This document shows, one piece after another, positions 58,872 through 64,000 of a stretch of 64,000 bases of DNA (the first letter of the stretch is position 1; every line of letters begins with the position of its first letter). The position numbers and the translations under genes are program-made. This DNA comes from an uncultured Pelagibacteraceae bacterium (GTDB taxonomy: Bacteria; Pseudomonadota; Alphaproteobacteria; Pelagibacterales; AG-422-B15), in the NCBI GenBank assembly GCA_902544065.1, contig CACCAS010000003.1:4492-68491 (forward strand), in the 5' to 3' direction. Below the pieces are notes generated by a model. That model was given only the letters and a program-made list of their open reading frames with translations. It ran no database searches and was not told the DNA's origin.

Positions 58872-59966
58872 ATGCAAAGTACAACATTTGAAATAAGAAA
58901 TAAAAAACCGACAGTTGTGGCGATGTCAGGTGGTGTAGATTCTTCTGTTGCTGCAGCCTTAATGAAAAAAGAAAATGAAAATGTCATTGGAGTTACATTA
59001 AGATTATATGATGAGAAGAAAATCTCTAAATCAAAATCCTGTTGCTCTGGTACAGACATTATAGACGCTAAAAAGATTGCTAATGATATAACTATTCCAC
59101 ATTATGTTTTAGACTATGAAGATATATTCAAAAAAAATGTAATACAGCCTTTTATCAATGACTATGAAAAAGGTCGTACACCTATTCCATGCATTAATTG
59201 CAATGAAAAAGTAAAATTTTTGGATCTCATTGAATTTGCAAAGAGTTTAAATGCAAGGAGTTTAGTTACTGGTCACTATATAAAAAAAATTAAAGTGAAT
59301 AATGAGTGGAGATTGTATATCCCAGAGGATACTGACCGTGATCAATCTTATTTTTTATTTACAACAAAAAAAAATGATCTTGATTTTTTAGACTTTCCTC
59401 TTGGTTATCACAAGAAAGATGAAATAAGAAATATGGCGAAAAATTTAGATTTTCATTTACATGATAAAGAAGATAGTCAGGATATTTGTTTTATTCCAGA
59501 TGGCAATTATAAAGATTTTATTAAAGACAGTGTCAAGAATTCAAAGGGAGATATTGTTGACACTAAGGGGAAAGTACTCAATGCACATGAAGGTATTCAC
59601 AATTTTACAGTAGGGCAAAGAAAAGGGTTAGGAGTTTCAGAGAAAAATCCTTTATATGTTAAAGAAATAATTTCAGAAAAAAATCGGGTTATAGTTGCTG
59701 AAAAACAGGAAGTAAAGTCTTCAACTATAAATGTTAATAAATTAAATCTTCTCACGGACATATCTGATCTTAATATGTTAGTAAGAGTAAGGTCTACTGG
59801 AAGTTTATTAGAGTCAGAAATAGAAATTCAATCAGATAATAAAGCTATAGTAAATTTGTCAAAACCAGAAAATGCTGTTTCTCCCGGTCAAGCATGTGTT
59901 TTTTATACCAAAGATGAATATGGAACACGTCTTCTTGGTGGTGGATGGATCCAGTCGACAAACTAA
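58872..59966 (+). CDS. mnmA: tRNA 2-thiouridine(34) synthase
   Basis: VVAMSGGVDSSVAA PP-loop, CCS, TGHY, DQSYFL motifs. ATG at 58872 (the track's TTG is at 58854). Confidence 0.92.
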   Translation: MQSTTFEIRNKKPTVVAMSGGVDSSVAAALMKKENENVIGVTLRLYDEKKISKSKSCCSGTDIIDAKKIANDITIPHYVLDYEDIFKKNVIQPFINDYEKGRTPIPCINCNEKVKFLDLIEFAKSLNARSLVTGHYIKKIKVNNEWRLYIPEDTDRDQSYFLFTTKKNDLDFLDFPLGYHKKDEIRNMAKNLDFHLHDKEDSQDICFIPDGNYKDFIKDSVKNSKGDIVDTKGKVLNAHEGIHNFTVGQRKGLGVSEKNPLYVKEIISEKNRVIVAEKQEVKSSTINVNKLNLLTDISDLNMLVRVRSTGSLLESEIEIQSDNKAIVNLSKPENAVSPGQACVFYTKDEYGTRLLGGGWIQSTN

Positions 59967-59992
59967 TTAATTTGTATATTATGTCAGCCTTT

Positions 59993-60069
59993 GGCGGGGT
60001 AGCTCAGTTGGTTAGAGCGGAGGAATCATAATCCTTAGGTCGGGGGTTCAAATCCCTCTCCCGCTACCA
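59993..60069 (+). tRNA. tRNA with CAU anticodon (elongator Met, or Ile2 if lysidinylated)
   Basis: Manual fold: acceptor GGCGGGG/TCCCGCT (G1-U72 and G7-U66 wobble pairs), D arm gctc-agttggtta-gagc, anticodon arm gagga-atCATaa-tcctt, T arm ggggg-ttcaaat-ccctc, encoded CCA; 77 nt. Confidence 0.88.
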
Positions 60070-60373
60070 AAGATAGCCCCATTTTTCCGGGCATATCCCT
60101 TTTGCAAGAAAAACCGAATAACTGGACTGGCAACAGTTGGTACAGTTTTGGTACAGTCGGTGCTTCTGGTGCTTTCAAAAACCAACAAAAACACATACTT
60201 GCAAAGACTAGGGATTTATCAATATGGATATGATTTATGTTATTGATTTAATTTAATAAATTGATTTTCAATGTTATAAAACAGTACGAACTCTAGCTAG
60301 TTTGGTACAGAGCTATCGTTCTGAACTACAGCTACTTCATATTGCTTGTATTAACCTATTGCTAAGACTTCCG

Positions 60374-60394
60374 CTCCCCCTTTACGGGGGAGCT
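60374..60394 (-). terminator. GC-rich stem-loop downstream of the island's 161-aa gene
   Basis: gctccccc-tttac-gggggagc, an 8-bp stem, 39 nt after the stop at 60433. No clear U-tract follows on the minus strand. Confidence 0.35.
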
Positions 60395-60432
60395 TCAGCT
60401 ATTAATCTCTGTATAAGTATCGATATATATCT

Positions 60433-60918
60433 TTAATCTATATCTATATCTGTCTTATTGAGATGTCTTAACTGATTGGAAAGAAAGCTAGGAGCATTAG
60501 CAGATTTGCCATTCTGCTTCAGCAGTTGCTCCTTTTTTGCTCTTGTTAGCTCTGCCTTTGCCTTTTTATCAGCTTGTTTTGCAAGGTCTAACATTGCTGT
60601 TTCATTCATCTGAGTCGAGTAGTTGAATGAACTCTTAGCACCTTTGTGAAGGTTCTCCTGTTTCATAATCAATCCTTGATCAATCATTGGTTGAAGATTC
60701 TTGTAGAAGGTGTCTTTCCGCATAGTTCGATAAAACTGCTTCCTTAAACCTTCAAGTTCAAAGTCATTCAGTTGGATATTCTGCTTATAGCAAGTTGCTT
60801 TTCTGCAATAGATATGAAGCAAGATATCTCTTTGAATTGGTTTGAGTAGGCAAGTAAGCATTAGCCATTCCTCATACCTGAACTTGATGAAGTAGTTATT
60901 ACCTCTATCTGCTGACAT
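60433..60918 (-). CDS. Island hypothetical protein (161 aa from MSADRGNNY), basic C-terminal coiled region
   Basis: Long ORF with a 14-nt overlap with the upstream excisionase-like gene. I recognise no motif. The start is trimmed from the track's 60948. Confidence 0.5.
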   Translation of the reverse strand: MSADRGNNYFIKFRYEEWLMLTCLLKPIQRDILLHIYCRKATCYKQNIQLNDFELEGLRKQFYRTMRKDTFYKNLQPMIDQGLIMKQENLHKGAKSSFNYSTQMNETAMLDLAKQADKKAKAELTRAKKEQLLKQNGKSANAPSFLSNQLRHLNKTDIDID

Positions 60919-61126
60919 CAGAAGCTCCTTCAGTATGTTCAGTAACAAACTGATCGAGAGCTTCTGGCGTGAAGTAAACCCTATGACCTATTCTAGTAGG
61001 TACAGGTTTCTTCTGGGAAGATGTATAAAAGATTCTCCGTAGTGTATATTGTGGTAAACCCAAATACTTCGAAGCTTCCTTTGTATCTAATAATCTTCCT
61101 ATGCTTTGTTGGTTCTGTGTAGTCAT
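60905..61126 (-). CDS. Excisionase/AlpA-type helix-turn-helix DNA-binding protein
   Basis: LLDTKEASKYLGLPQYTLRRI......P.PTRIGHRVYFTPEALDQFV fits the HTH_17/excisionase pattern. taGGAGattggttt precedes the ATG. Confidence 0.65.
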   Translation of the reverse strand: MTTQNQQSIGRLLDTKEASKYLGLPQYTLRRIFYTSSQKKPVPTRIGHRVYFTPEALDQFVTEHTEGASDVSR

Positions 61127-61848
61127 AAACCAATCTCCTATTCTCTGTATTAGGACAATTCACAGTCTGTCTTTTGACTGCATTTTTTTTCAGGCGGGAT
61201 ACTATGCCCACCCCTGGGCTATAGCTTATTGACCGTATTGCCTTGTGTGGCAAGTCCGACAGCTTTAGTCGTATGCTAGAAAGCAAGTAACCTTTTTTAT
61301 ATTGTCTAATAAGTCCAATTAAACGAATCACTACAGCTTTCATAAGTTAATTACTAAACAATATTGCAACTAAAGTCAGTACACAGTGCATAAAAGATAC
61401 TAACAAAAACTCTATATCTATTAATAAATACTTATCGTTAATTGTGATCAGATTGTTTTCAATGTGAGTGCTAAGTGTTTGTTTTTTATATACTGTAAAA
61501 ACTGTAAAAATATTCACACCTTTTTTTAGACTGTGTAAAAAGTGTAATTATCTTTTTTAGTGGCTCTAAAAACCCTAACTATTTTTCAGCAATGGTAACT
61601 TCATAGCAGTTCTTAGTCATCATTTCGACTTCTGTAACATCCTCAGCAGATGCATTGAGAGACTCCATTACCTGCATTTCCAAAGAAGTAGCAGTAACAA
61701 TCTCGCCAGTTTCAACAGTGATTAAGGGTAAGCAAATGGTAGCCATTAGGAACTCAATTATCATACCCAAATTTGTATTAGTACGAGGTGTCCCCCTTTT
61801 GTCGGAAATTCGGCATAACTGTGTTCAAAGTCAATTTAAAAAGGATTC

Positions 61849-62121
61849 TTAAAATTGCCTGTAAGTTCCATCATCATATACTGTTACACAACCAGTTGCT
61901 CCACCTGACACATATAAAGATTCTCCGTCTGGAGAATTTATATTAACACCACCATCACAGACAGTGACACTCCTCGTATCAGCATCGTCATAACCTTCTT
62001 CATAACCTTTTTCATAGCCTTCTTTATAACCCTGAGCGTAACCATCCCGAAAATCAAATTCATCAGAAGTAGCAACAGAAATAATCCCTAACAAGATTAT
62101 TATGGAGAGTAGGTGTTTCAT
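61849..62121 (-). CDS. Exported small protein, MKHLLSI family member A (GY-repeat, 2 Cys)
   Basis: Signal peptide MKHLLSIIILLGIISVATS; mature part has GYAQGYKEGYEKGYEEGY repeats. ATGA overlap with the upstream gene. Confidence 0.65.
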   Translation of the reverse strand: MKHLLSIIILLGIISVATSDEFDFRDGYAQGYKEGYEKGYEEGYDDADTRSVTVCDGGVNINSPDGESLYVSGGATGCVTVYDDGTYRQF

Positions 62122-62549
62122 TCTTCTGTAAATAATCCTAATGGGTCATTATCTTTCACAGTATCCATACTTTTCGTAGTCTCTAACTTATACCCTCCAC
62201 TATAGACACAAGTTAAATCATAAATATTTGCATTATCTTCTCTATCGGTAGGCACTTCCTTGATAACTATCTGTTTGCTGAAATCACAGAATCTAGCAAC
62301 AACTGTATTCAACCTCTCATGATTATTACTAATGGCATTTATATCTTGTGGAATTTTTAATGCAAAATCCACAACAGTAACAGTAAGTATCTCTCCTTTT
62401 CTGCAATCTTTCTGAATATACTCTGCATCAGCTTGACGAAACGTGTCACAAATTTTGTTAACTTCGGAATCTTCTTTTGAGCTAGAATTTAAATAAGAGT
62501 CACAGCCCACAAAAAATAAAACAAAAAGTATAGAGAGTAGGTGTTTCAT
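62118..62549 (-). CDS. Probable lipoprotein, MKHLLSI family member B
   Basis: MKHLLSILFVLFFVGC with a lipobox-like FVGC. TAG-ATG abutment with the upstream gene. Confidence 0.65.
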   Translation of the reverse strand: MKHLLSILFVLFFVGCDSYLNSSSKEDSEVNKICDTFRQADAEYIQKDCRKGEILTVTVVDFALKIPQDINAISNNHERLNTVVARFCDFSKQIVIKEVPTDREDNANIYDLTCVYSGGYKLETTKSMDTVKDNDPLGLFTEE

Positions 62550-62885
62550 CTAAAAGAGTTGTTCTAATTGCTTGCAGTTTAATCGACTTACAACTTCAGA
62601 GGCATCACCGTTTGATATAATCAAACTTTCAGTCAGTTCACCAGTAAATCGATTTATTGTGGTTCTGACTGTTCCATTATGTCCATCCGCAACGATATGT
62701 TTCTCTGTCACAAGAACAATTTCATTTACAAAATCATCTATCCAAAGTTTGTTTTGTTCAAAATTAATATCTATTTCATAAACAAGTTCATCTGAACCGT
62801 CCTTCCAACATCCAAGATATGTTTCTTCAGCGAATGAAGTAAAAGTAAAGCCAAATAAGATGAATATGGAGAGTAGGTGTTTCAT
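62550..62885 (-). CDS. Exported small protein, MKHLLSI family member C
   Basis: Signal peptide MKHLLSIFILFGFTFTSFA, cleavage-site-like SFA-EE. ATGA overlap with the upstream gene. Confidence 0.65.
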   Translation of the reverse strand: MKHLLSIFILFGFTFTSFAEETYLGCWKDGSDELVYEIDINFEQNKLWIDDFVNEIVLVTEKHIVADGHNGTVRTTINRFTGELTESLIISNGDASEVVSRLNCKQLEQLF

Positions 62886-63526
62886 TCTTCTTCTGCTTCA
62901 AGATCTTTAAGTTCTTTTTTAAGCTTTTTAATTTTAATCTGTCTCTCAAGTTTTTTAACTTCTCTAATCTCTTCAGTCTCATCTTCGTAGGAAGATTTTG
63001 CGTATGTCTGTTCTGCAGGTGTTACATCTTCAAGTTCAGATAATCTTGTTTCAAGTTCTTTTCTTTTAACTTTATTTTTAAGAGGTATCGTTGATGCTTT
63101 GTATGCTTCTTTAGTTTTCCTTACTGACGCACTAACTAGCAAATAAATAATAAATGCAGCAACTATAGCAACAACAATTAATATATTTTGATTTTGTATT
63201 TGAGTTGGAGTTCTATTTGAATTCTGTATTTCTATAGGTACAAATTTCTGTCCACTCAAATCATCACCGACACAAGATTCCAAATATGCGTGCATACAAA
63301 AGCCACCTTTAGCCCAATGAAGGTTCTCACCAACACATTGAGTTCTTGTGTAATTAGAAGCTTTATTACTTAATTTTATGTAAGTGCAAACATCTGTACT
63401 AGATATTGGAATACAAAGAGAATTTGGATCATTTGGATTAGCTTTCCGAGTTCCCTCGCCACATTCATTAGCACTGGCCAGAGACATAAACCCTAACAAA
63501 ATTAATATGGAGAGTAGGTGTTTCAT
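62882..63526 (-). CDS. Type I membrane protein, MKHLLSI family member D (Cys-rich ectodomain, TM, Lys/Glu coiled-coil tail)
   Basis: Signal peptide MKHLLSILILLGFMSLASA, six Cys in the ectodomain, TM ILIVVAIVAAFIIYLLVSA, tail KKLERQIKIKKLKKELKDLEAEEE. ATG at 63526 (the track's TTG is at 63535). Confidence 0.65.
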   Translation of the reverse strand: MKHLLSILILLGFMSLASANECGEGTRKANPNDPNSLCIPISSTDVCTYIKLSNKASNYTRTQCVGENLHWAKGGFCMHAYLESCVGDDLSGQKFVPIEIQNSNRTPTQIQNQNILIVVAIVAAFIIYLLVSASVRKTKEAYKASTIPLKNKVKRKELETRLSELEDVTPAEQTYAKSSYEDETEEIREVKKLERQIKIKKLKKELKDLEAEEE

Positions 63527-63528
63527 TA

Positions 63529-63702
63529 TCACCAAGAACTATCACTACATATACTTACAGCATTATAACTACTATGACCTTCGTTAATGTAAGCTCTTTT
63601 ACATTGCTGATAGGGAGAAAAAATTAAATAGAAAATTGTAAACAGTATGAATGCAAAAACAATGTAGACTATAGGTCTGTATTCTGGTGGAATTTTATTC
63701 AT
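63529..63702 (-). CDS. Small (57 aa) single-TM protein heading the MKHLLSI array
   Basis: Not in the track (under 60 aa). My translation is MNKIPPEYRPIVYIVFAFILFTIFYLIFSPYQQCKRAYINEGHSSYNAVSICSDSSW. Its TGA is 2 nt before the member D ATG. Confidence 0.4.
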   Translation of the reverse strand: MNKIPPEYRPIVYIVFAFILFTIFYLIFSPYQQCKRAYINEGHSSYNAVSICSDSSW

Positions 63703-63744
63703 ATCAAAACATTATACCAGATACATAAATTATCAATTTCGTTT

Positions 63745-63816
63745 ACAAACCCCCCTATATATAACAAACCCCCCCGTATTTTAGATTGATGGGGTAGGTT
63801 GTTCAAAACCCCCTAT
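63745..63816. repeat. Three CAAA(A)-poly(C)-(G)TAT direct repeats in a divergent intergenic region
   Basis: acaaaCCCCCCtat (C6, 63750-63755), acaaaCCCCCCCgtat (C7, 63769-63775), tcaaaaCCCCCtat (C5, 63809-63813). Confidence 0.7.
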
Positions 63817-63832
63817 GTGGTAAGATTTCGAT

Positions 63833-64000
63833 ATGAAAGAAAAACCAGGCATATTTTATATTGCAATAATAATAGGATGGGCATTTATTACTGTCATATT
63901 TGGATATGGTTTATCTCAAACTGGAGTTCATGAAGGTTTTTCTTATTTACTTGGCATGATAATTTTCTGGGTAGGCATGTATGTTTTGATGAAAAGCGAA
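63833..64000 (+). CDS. Membrane protein, N-terminal fragment (continues beyond the window)
   Basis: My translation is MKEKPGIFYIAIIIGWAFITVIFGYGLSQTGVHEGFSYLLGMIIFWVGMYVLMKSE, open to the window end, with two predicted TM helices. Confidence 0.4.
   Translation, partial: MKEKPGIFYIAIIIGWAFITVIFGYGLSQTGVHEGFSYLLGMIIFWVGMYVLMKSE

Follow-up and report, generated by a model that had tools for sequence, protein, structure and literature searches.

An array of genes with one shared start

We analysed 64,000 nucleotides (nt) of contig CACCAS010000003.1 from an uncultured Pelagibacteraceae bacterium (assembly GCA_902544065.1); this whole stretch is called the window hereafter. Its last 2.2 kb hold an array of five co-oriented minus-strand genes, a gene for a protein of 57 amino acids (aa) followed by four genes designated D, C, B and A. 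Each of these four opens with the same 21 nt, ATGAAACACCTACTCTC(C/T)ATA, which encode MKHLLSI and are referred to as the cassette, and the four genes overlap or abut. The cassette is the beginning of a 57-nt signal-peptide module. The genes and their parts are listed here; L numbers denote related loci fetched by sequence pattern.

63529-63702, minus strand: first gene of the array, encoding a 57-aa single-pass membrane protein (open reading frame (ORF) translation; a homologue stands behind the same family of promoter-like block, the P-module, in L114).
62882-63526, minus strand: gene D, 214 aa, with signal-peptide module, Cys-rich variable ectodomain, transmembrane (TM) helix and charged cytoplasmic tail.
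63470-63526, minus strand: signal-peptide module of D, MKHLLSILILLGFMSLASA, 57 nt, with the cassette at 63506-63526.
About 63122-63184, minus strand: TM helix of D.
62885-63121, minus strand: conserved charged tail of D.
62550-62885, minus strand: gene C, 111 aa, with the module at 62829-62885, the cassette at 62865-62885 and a small all-beta domain.
62118-62549, minus strand: gene B, 143 aa, with the lipoprotein version of the module, MKHLLSILFVLFFVG/C, and the cassette at 62529-62549.
61849-62121, minus strand: gene A, 90 aa, with the module at 62065-62121, the cassette at 62101-62121 and a GY-repeat/Cys domain.

The shared start had been pointed out in a preliminary description of this DNA and proved to be exact: all four minus-strand copies match ATGAAACACCTACTCTCYATA with 0 mismatches, the copy in gene B carrying T at the Y position. 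No fifth copy exists in the window when up to three mismatches are allowed, 100 shuffles of the window gave 0 matches, and none of the four copies is expected by chance. In an alignment of the four starts, invariant columns begin at the A of the ATG, and no conservation is seen upstream of it. The junctions were also confirmed by reading the sequence. The 57-aa gene is separated from D by a 2-nt gap (TGA-TA-ATG), D overlaps C and B overlaps A in the tetranucleotide ATGA, and the ATG of B directly follows the TAG of C. The motif AGAAGA on the upstream side of two cassette copies is explained by the Glu-Glu-stop ending that genes D and B have in common. Genes A and D remain alike beyond the cassette (84% identity across 68 nt), again in agreement with the earlier observation. 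The mature parts of A, B, C and D, in turn, had been described as unrelated; neither BLASTP (E<1e-3) nor family hidden Markov models (HMMs; best pair D-B, E=0.43) links them, and the four proteins are thus not full-length homologues.

By inspection, each start combines the n-region MKH with a hydrophobic h-region and an AxA motif or lipobox, the features of Sec signal peptides processed by signal peptidase (SPase) I or SPase II. Cleavage is predicted at LASA/NE in D, SFA/EE in C and ATS/DE in A, and at FVG/C in B, whose lipobox reads FVGC and is followed by Asp at +2. The products are predicted to be periplasmic, lipoprotein or membrane-anchored proteins. None of their mature domains could be recognised, as had been stated before: when A to D and the neighbouring genes were compared with Pfam, PHROGs, NCBIfam and PADLOC, nothing exceeded the threshold except HTH_17, A to D have no sequence match in the PDB, and B has neither a Pfam nor a PDB match.

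A signal-peptide module joined to many cargos

In the preliminary description the 21-nt cassette was taken as the conserved unit. It is the most conserved part, but the true unit is the entire 57-nt module, a Sec signal peptide with the consensus MKHLLSILIFLSFMSVASA or its lipobox version. In 40 non-redundant genes, identity upstream of the start remains at background up to position -2, with a conserved A at -1. Conservation amounts to 93-100% over the first 21 nt, the polymorphic Ser wobble site being the exception with 78%, and to 40-97% over codons 8-19; background is reached from codon 20 onward, where cleavage is predicted.

When species-representative genomes were scanned with the pattern ATGAAACACCTNCTNTCNATA, 43 loci matched. 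Eight copies reside in seven Pelagibacteraceae single-cell or metagenome-assembled genomes, and each of them continues as MKHLLSILI... and then runs into a different protein; the remaining matches are scattered chance matches in unrelated taxa. A metagenome scan with a slightly looser pattern matched at least 120 stretches, and among the matches listed about 50 cassette genes look SAR11-like, all of them on marine, low-GC contigs. A 60-nt profile detected 79 copies across the fetched loci and, in the window, none beyond the four already known. Most of the 21 nt are fixed in the pattern used to retrieve the loci, so that conservation of the cassette is partly ascertained, and 21 extra "bystander" copies on contigs with several copies serve as an unbiased sample. 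The exact 21-mer is present in 10 of these 21 and five more carry a single synonymous change, mostly AAA to AAG; the other copies encode similar beginnings, among them MNKLLSI and MRQLISI. In this wider family the exact cassette is thus the commonest allele and not an invariant one.

The cargo behind the module differs widely. The 55 full-length products examined fall into 32 groups unlinked by BLASTP, some of which stem from chance-hit loci. Family HMMs join the C-like proteins, which share a C-terminal C-K-x-E-x-LF, and unite A with its remote relative, a DGY-repeat lipoprotein of L027. After removal of the chance loci and merging by HMM, at least 24 cargo families remain, and A to D are still unlinked. 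The cassette thus occurs with other cargo elsewhere, both in Pelagibacteraceae genomes and on marine metagenome contigs, as had been predicted. Cargos include an SNase nuclease (PF00565) and a Sel1-repeat lipoprotein (PF08238). A 239-aa cargo matches phrog_1353 and has a relative in the Acinetobacter phage PhabP_R1. In that phage the gene is placed like a moron, with a toxin-antitoxin pair on one side and the tape-measure gene on the other, and its product carries its own, unrelated lipoprotein signal peptide. No polymorphic-toxin domains or immunity pairs were recognised among the cargos, and in PADLOC a candidate model was matched only by the SNase cargo and by none of A to D. Several small cargos (the C family, L051_1687, L147_1135 and L070_3212) share the C-terminal motif C-K-x-(L/A)-E-x-L-F and a Cys close to the N-terminus of the mature protein, which suggests a wider superfamily of disulfide-closed all-beta proteins.

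In 19 pairs of genes with unrelated cargo the signal-peptide DNA is at least 93% identical, and the 60-nt flanks on each side are about 30% identical; one pair (L155 and L160) is identical at 57 of 57 nt. Many mature domains that are not homologous have become attached to the module, and near-identical modules on unrelated cargo rule out ordinary divergent paralogues. Duplication of one gene in tandem, with divergence of the mature parts and retention of the signal peptide, would account for the C-terminal C-K-x-E-x-LF of the C-like families and for the resemblance of A to the L027 lipoprotein. The cargos, however, comprise an SNase OB-fold, Sel1 alpha-repeats, an all-beta domain and a TM/coiled-coil protein, the phage homologues of the phrog_1353 cargo possess a different signal peptide, and a single codon separates about 96% identity from background. 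Contradicted by unlinked mature parts and unrelated Pfam domains, this explanation retains hardly any probability.

Searches for relatives of the individual genes yielded 25 homologues for D, 11 for C and 6 for B, all of them in small unannotated marine families. A profile search with the D family in 1.84 billion representative proteins returned only 16 matches and no distant relatives. The AlphaFold2 (AF2) model of D is poor (predicted local distance difference test, pLDDT, 58). That of C (pLDDT 81) is an all-beta structure with eight strands, and the protein has conserved N- and C-terminal Cys residues; the model gave no fold match in the PDB at E<1e-3 and weak matches only to small phage proteins, some annotated as lipoproteins.

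Further constant blocks

Constant DNA is also found in the 3' part of gene D, in front of the first gene and behind the array. In the 22 members of the D family compared, the tail is nearly invariant, and the ectodomains are unalignable and differ in their Cys patterns. The tail comprises about 70 aa with dozens of invariant positions (IPLKNKVKRKELETRL...KLERQIKIKKLxKELKDLEEE). A 45-aa "headless" version of D, consisting of TM helix and tail, stands ahead of a cassette gene in L021. Gene callers often place the start of D-type genes at the internal Met14 (MSLA... or MSVA...), as in P0001 with 201 instead of 214 aa; the overlap of the true start with the upstream gene is the probable cause. Such calls hide the shared leader and the family in protein databases.

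The blocks on either side of the array and the features next to them are:

63700-63751, minus strand: P-module, a constant promoter-like block that ends at the ATG of the first gene, with at least 35 copies in the fetched loci.
63745-63760, 63764-63779 and 63803-63818, minus strand: three G-rich direct repeats resembling TAGGGGGGTTTGT, upstream of the P-module.
63833-64000, plus strand: divergent gene for a small membrane protein, MKEKPGIFYIAIIIGW..., cut by the window end; homologue at L063 565-756.
61579-61821, minus strand: constant 3' block after the array, 96-99% identical in L020 (3480-3717) and L063 (3728-3919).

The P-module has the consensus GGTTTGTAAACAGAATTGCTTATTTGTGTATCTGAGATAAGATTTTGGT/ATG and contains an extended -10 element, in the window TGGTATAAT, which is overlapped by the palindrome TATCTgAGATA. 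Its copies (in L051, L069, L083, L098, L114, L126, L063, L029 and others) each abut a different first gene. From the end of the TATAAT hexamer to the ATG the distance is 8 nt in the window and 6 nt in the consensus copies, and this fixed spacing suggests that arrays behind a P-module are transcribed into leaderless or near-leaderless mRNAs. A scan for promoter and terminator consensus sequences performed no better than on shuffled sequence. The G-rich repeats are conserved in L029, L047, L063, L083, L031, L022 and L070 and may be regulator-binding sites or iterons. As for the divergent gene, its L063 homologue is a 63-aa ORF followed by two more small TM genes. The 3' block contains a small acidic ORF of 63 aa from TTG or 55 aa from ATG; substitutions in the block fall mostly at third codon positions, which indicates that this ORF is probably a real gene.

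Variation between genomes at the locus

The locus differs between members of the population, in line with the preliminary description. Four contigs, L063 and three resembling it, encode gene A exactly. Over 61580-62875 (genes A, B and C) the identity between L063 and the window is 98.8%; it is lost ten bases into the cassette of C and resumes at 63700, in the promoter block, at 91%. In between, four other genes replace the 57-aa gene and D of the window. L126 is 95.5% identical over 62519-62898, i.e., gene C and the first 30 nt of B, after which a different cargo follows; the gene upstream is also a different one. In L020, an "empty" cassette of 13 codons and a stop adjoins the block that stands behind A in the window. 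Empty cassettes with a stop after 7-13 codons occur at L020 3429, L026 6001, L057 1274 and L098 3680, and they look like footprints of cargo loss. In L063, L164 and L165 the array is followed by a gene for a 665-aa Acyl_transf_3 plus SGNH O-acetyltransferase (L063 4086-6083) in place of the HTH/tRNA-Met end described below, so the 3' side of the array varies as well.

Two alleles of the 5' half of the signal peptide, CTTATCTTCTT... and TTAATCTT..., are both present in four of the nine cargo families with several members, which requires exchange within or at the module. Of the recombination or gene conversion at the cassette that had been proposed, exchange is borne out by the breakpoints in the module (L063 and L126) and by the reassorted alleles; no sign of homogenisation within arrays was seen, a point taken up below. 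What is seen here is variation between genomes in a population; switching within a clone is another matter.

The gain and loss of single genes at a repeat is cassette-like, and one could suppose a site-specific system in which a recombinase uses the 21-mer as its crossover site, as in integrons, shufflons or mycoplasma vsa. Related elements even encode an integrase-type Arm DNA-binding protein, in which no catalytic domain was detected. The copies are, however, direct repeats within genes and possess neither an inverted-repeat core nor an attC-like structure, breakpoints are located also at other constant blocks and at differing positions in the module, and the integrase-like gene is accounted for by its position beside a tRNA-Met att copy. 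We therefore consider a site-specific cassette system barely credible.

Codon choice and start context of the cassette

The first 21 nt are peculiar at the nucleotide level. With the codon usage of the window, in which five of the six cassette codons (codons 2-7) are minor ones, this peptide would be encoded by the choice CAC, CTA, CTC, TCC/TCT and ATA with a probability of 2e-5 to 1e-4. Wobble sites that the search pattern had left free are 97% C, 93% A, 97% C and 78% T, and the third positions of codons 8-19 vary much more than those of codons 2-7. When the window D gene is compared with five other D genes at identical residues, synonymous difference amounts to about 50% in the tail and 54% in codons 8-19, and to only one in six in codons 2-7.

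The context of the starts was evaluated for 61 copies. Twenty of these overlap the upstream stop as ATGA and six as TAATG, eight show a stop-ATG junction and in 14 a gap of 1-15 nt is found. The upstream stop is consequently overlapped or abutted in 34 of the 61 copies and lies at most 15 nt away in 14 more. Shine-Dalgarno (SD)-like motifs precede 7 of 42 cassette genes and 5 of 39 host genes. Folding of positions -10 to +21 was predicted for 41 non-redundant genes and compared with synonymous recodings weighted by host codon usage. The native cassette was more open (the median share of recodings equally or more open was 0.05, the mean gain in unpaired probability 0.12, Wilcoxon p=1e-9), and the same test on 39 host genes revealed no effect (median 0.62). 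The synonymous conservation of codons 2-7 and a start region predicted to be more open than its recodings lend weight to the shared translational signal that the preliminary description had offered as the alternative to recombination. Both are supported and they are not mutually exclusive. Pairing of the cassette with the G-rich upstream repeats and its likeness to the anti-SD tail of 16S rRNA were considered and dropped as numerology.

Three further explanations of the constant sequence bear on these data. According to the first, the module is portable homology and nothing else: identity persists because exchange needs it, drifted copies leave the pool, and the mRNA plays no role. The breakpoints inside the module, the reassortment of signal-peptide alleles among cargo families, the identical 57-nt modules on unrelated cargo (L155 and L160) and the like behaviour of P-module and D tail all agree with this. 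It leaves unexplained, however, why synonymous conservation is greater in codons 2-7 than in codons 8-19, why the rare codons are just those that leave the start unpaired, and why host genes lack such a bias. Moreover, efficient RecA-dependent exchange in E. coli usually requires a minimum length that 21 nt at best just reaches. On balance, we regard homology as the sole cause as rather unlikely.

The second explanation holds that MKHLLSIL... is a dedicated targeting signal recognised by a particular export or sorting route, comparable to YSIRK or KxYKxGKxW. Conservation of the peptide across at least 24 cargo families fits, as does the fact that the variants MNKLLSI and MRQLISI keep the charge and the hydrophobic pattern. 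The same n-region nevertheless precedes AxA sites for SPase I, a lipobox for SPase II and a type I membrane protein, and selection on a peptide would neither freeze wobble positions nor favour rare codons. The peptide matches no curated N-terminal signal family in Pfam or NCBIfam, and the arrays contain no dedicated transporter gene. All this makes a targeting signal very improbable.

Thirdly, the 21 nt could be the common target of a trans-acting small RNA (sRNA) or RNA-binding protein that switches the whole family together. The centring of conservation on the start codon and about 18 nt, the usual sRNA window, would be in accord with such a target, and the shared promoter/operator block makes coordinated control plausible. 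Against it stand the lack of any complementary sequence elsewhere within the 64-kb window at up to three mismatches and the result of an Rfam search of 59800-64000, which finds no RNA gene apart from a tRNA. The chances of a common regulatory target are therefore slim.

A probable integrated-element context

The array lies beside features of an integrated element, and this part of the preliminary description is supported. In the window these are:

60905-61126, minus strand: HTH_17 (helix-turn-helix), AlpA/excisionase-like protein (Pfam PF12728, E=2e-6; phrog_66).
60433-60948, minus strand: 171-aa protein with weak RTP and F-93 WHD winged-helix matches only, possibly a replication or regulatory protein of the element.
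59993-60069, plus strand: tRNA-Met gene, the last 46 nt of which recur beside an integrase-like gene in L070.

The tRNA-Met gene is likely the integration site of the element, of which the window shows this gene, the HTH_17 protein and the winged-helix-like protein. In L070 (3175-4935), the 46-nt copy of the tRNA-Met 3' end is located beside the integrase-like gene and there is no full tRNA. In L143 (1-9310), an array lies between a gene of the integrase type (Arm-DNA-bind_3) and genes for HTH_17, a Toprim_3 primase, AAA_25 and a small terminase (Sf6_terminase). HTH_17 homologues adjoin a primase in both L070 and L143. In these two loci an Arm DNA-binding domain and no catalytic integrase domain was detected. 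Integrase-like ORFs are present at both ends of L143 (one of them was scanned), which suggests tandem elements. Other copies of the array reside after livHMG-type transporter genes or before the Acyl_transf_3/SGNH O-acetyltransferase gene.

IMG/VR viral contigs gave 0 matches for the exact cassette, the relaxed cassette, two forms of the P-module and the D family, and GenBank phages contained no D homologue and no signal-peptide module.

A probable modular exported set of SAR11

Taken together, the four genes probably belong to a large set of exported proteins that is specific to SAR11 (Pelagibacterales), is carried on islands or satellites and is built from few constant DNA modules. The signal-peptide module has sharp borders, is followed by unrelated folds, contains breakpoints and shows reassorted alleles. 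Along with the promoter block and the D-type TM-tail block, it may act as portable homology through which homologous recombination could exchange cargo, remove it or add it. The first 21 nt would additionally be held by selection on the mRNA. Since most starts are on or near an upstream stop and lack a visible SD motif, the cassette genes would have to be translated by termination-reinitiation or by direct binding of ribosomes to single-stranded RNA. The rare, C-rich and G-free codons CAC, CTA, CTC and TCC would keep the AU-rich start region unpaired: C in place of U or A in an AU-rich, G-poor message removes pairing partners, so that the reinitiation site could stay single-stranded.

Several points weigh against this account. 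Homogenisation within arrays was tested and none was found: signal-peptide similarity is 0.60 between array neighbours, 0.62 between different loci and 0.80 between orthologous cargos, and as neighbours are no more alike than modules from different loci, gene conversion within arrays is not shown. The synonymous-site comparison of D genes is effectively that of one deep lineage split. The scarcity of SD motifs does not set the array apart because host genes are equally poor in them (5/39). The folding result is a prediction, and the 41 genes share downstream signal-peptide sequence and so are not independent; moreover, avoidance of structure alone does not demand one exact sequence. The loci had been fetched by pattern, and the unbiased bystander sample is small (21), with only about half of its copies exact. 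Lastly, the window ends at 64000, short of the far end of the element, and shows neither an integrase gene nor a far att site of this copy; the absence of the modules from IMG/VR and GenBank phages renders any link to phage particles indirect.

As to function, the most likely role of the products would be to vary or shield the cell envelope, for example in the exclusion of phages. Pointers in this direction are the export signals, hypervariable periplasmic parts with constant anchors and the rarity of each cargo, as well as the satellite-like location, the homologue of a phage moron among the cargos and the neighbouring O-acetyltransferase. Envelope variation or phage exclusion, like the surface modification or superinfection exclusion put forward in the preliminary description, is nevertheless a tentative assignment that we hold with considerable reserve. 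More speculative still, and in our view improbable, is a recombinase-free "plug-and-play" system made up of a leaderless promoter, a 57-nt signal peptide with SD-independent reinitiation and a TM-tail, whose diversity would constitute the main layer of phage resistance.

Relation to known systems and significance

We found no description of the MKHLLSI leader in the literature, and keyword searches of papers on SAR11 islands, the pangenome and satellites returned no passage on a shared leader. Judged by organisation, the closest analogue is the SVM signal peptide that phytoplasmas carry on potential mobile units, one conserved signal peptide in front of many unrelated small secreted proteins. 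As in the array, there is a reduced genome, a conserved N-terminal signal peptide and clustering in mobile or variable regions. Phytoplasmas, however, have no periplasm and their proteins are effectors directed at the host, whereas the genes of the array are tightly coupled, their nucleotide conservation is sharpest at the first seven codons, and promoter and TM-tail blocks are constant too. Pfam SVM_signal matched neither the window proteins (E<=1) nor 27 family members (E<=0.01).

Constant 5' signal-peptide regions joined to variable surface parts, with recombination in the constant flanks, are also known from the vsp, vlp and vsa genes of mycoplasmas and from msp2/p44 of Anaplasma. The msp2 genes have a constant 3' end in addition, and gene D shares this layout of constant signal peptide, variable ectodomain and constant tail. 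Those systems change expression inside a single cell line, through inversion or through gene conversion that draws on silent copies, while every copy in the array is complete, co-oriented and probably co-transcribed; there are no inverted recombination sites or truncated silent copies, and the four direct repeats each have a start codon and a full signal peptide. Conserved leaders, conserved also at the DNA level, precede hypervariable mature parts in the prochlorosin precursors (ProcA) of marine picoplankton, which like the array are encoded in genomic islands, and in conotoxin superfamilies. These leaders direct a modifying enzyme or are eukaryotic endoplasmic reticulum (ER) signals, and the mature parts are short and of one structural class, unlike the Sec or lipoprotein signal peptide and the folded cargo domains of different folds found here. 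In polymorphic toxins (CdiA-CT/Rhs and their orphan modules), a short coding motif at the border of constant and variable parts provides homology for swapping. In the array the constant part is only a signal peptide, and no toxin/immunity pairs were recognised. Integron cassettes were rejected as a parallel: inverted repeats between the genes are absent, genes that overlap or abut leave no room for attC, and the only integrase-like genes, those of related loci, sit beside tRNA att copies. By these analogies, the logic of constant flanks and variable parts is known, and the mechanisms differ.

Among mobile elements, phage satellites and virion-encapsidated integrative mobile elements have been reported for marine Pelagibacter (Eppley et al. 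2022, PMC9618062). The layout of L143 and the position of L070 beside a tRNA-Met att copy resemble these satellites. A keyword search of that paper gave no hit for "signal peptide". Unannotated signal-peptide proteins make up 13.1% of the SAR11 flexible genome and 4.6% of the core genome, as stated in another study (PMC11796062).

The interest of the array derives from the organism, from a practical sequence tag and from recombinase-free cassette exchange as a testable idea. The 21- to 57-nt tag makes a hidden exported set countable in metagenomes and long reads and marks where the cargo starts, and the module offers natural recombination landmarks for the exchange of envelope genes in a streamlined genome. 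In an AT-rich genome, it is also a testable example of codon choice tuned for starts without a visible SD motif. An effect of the cargos on phage entry, if there is one, would make the arrays relevant to the coexistence of SAR11 and its phages. Should the plug-and-play reading be true, any cell could swap envelope proteins by means of DNA from its relatives, in an organism that is streamlined and poor in defences.

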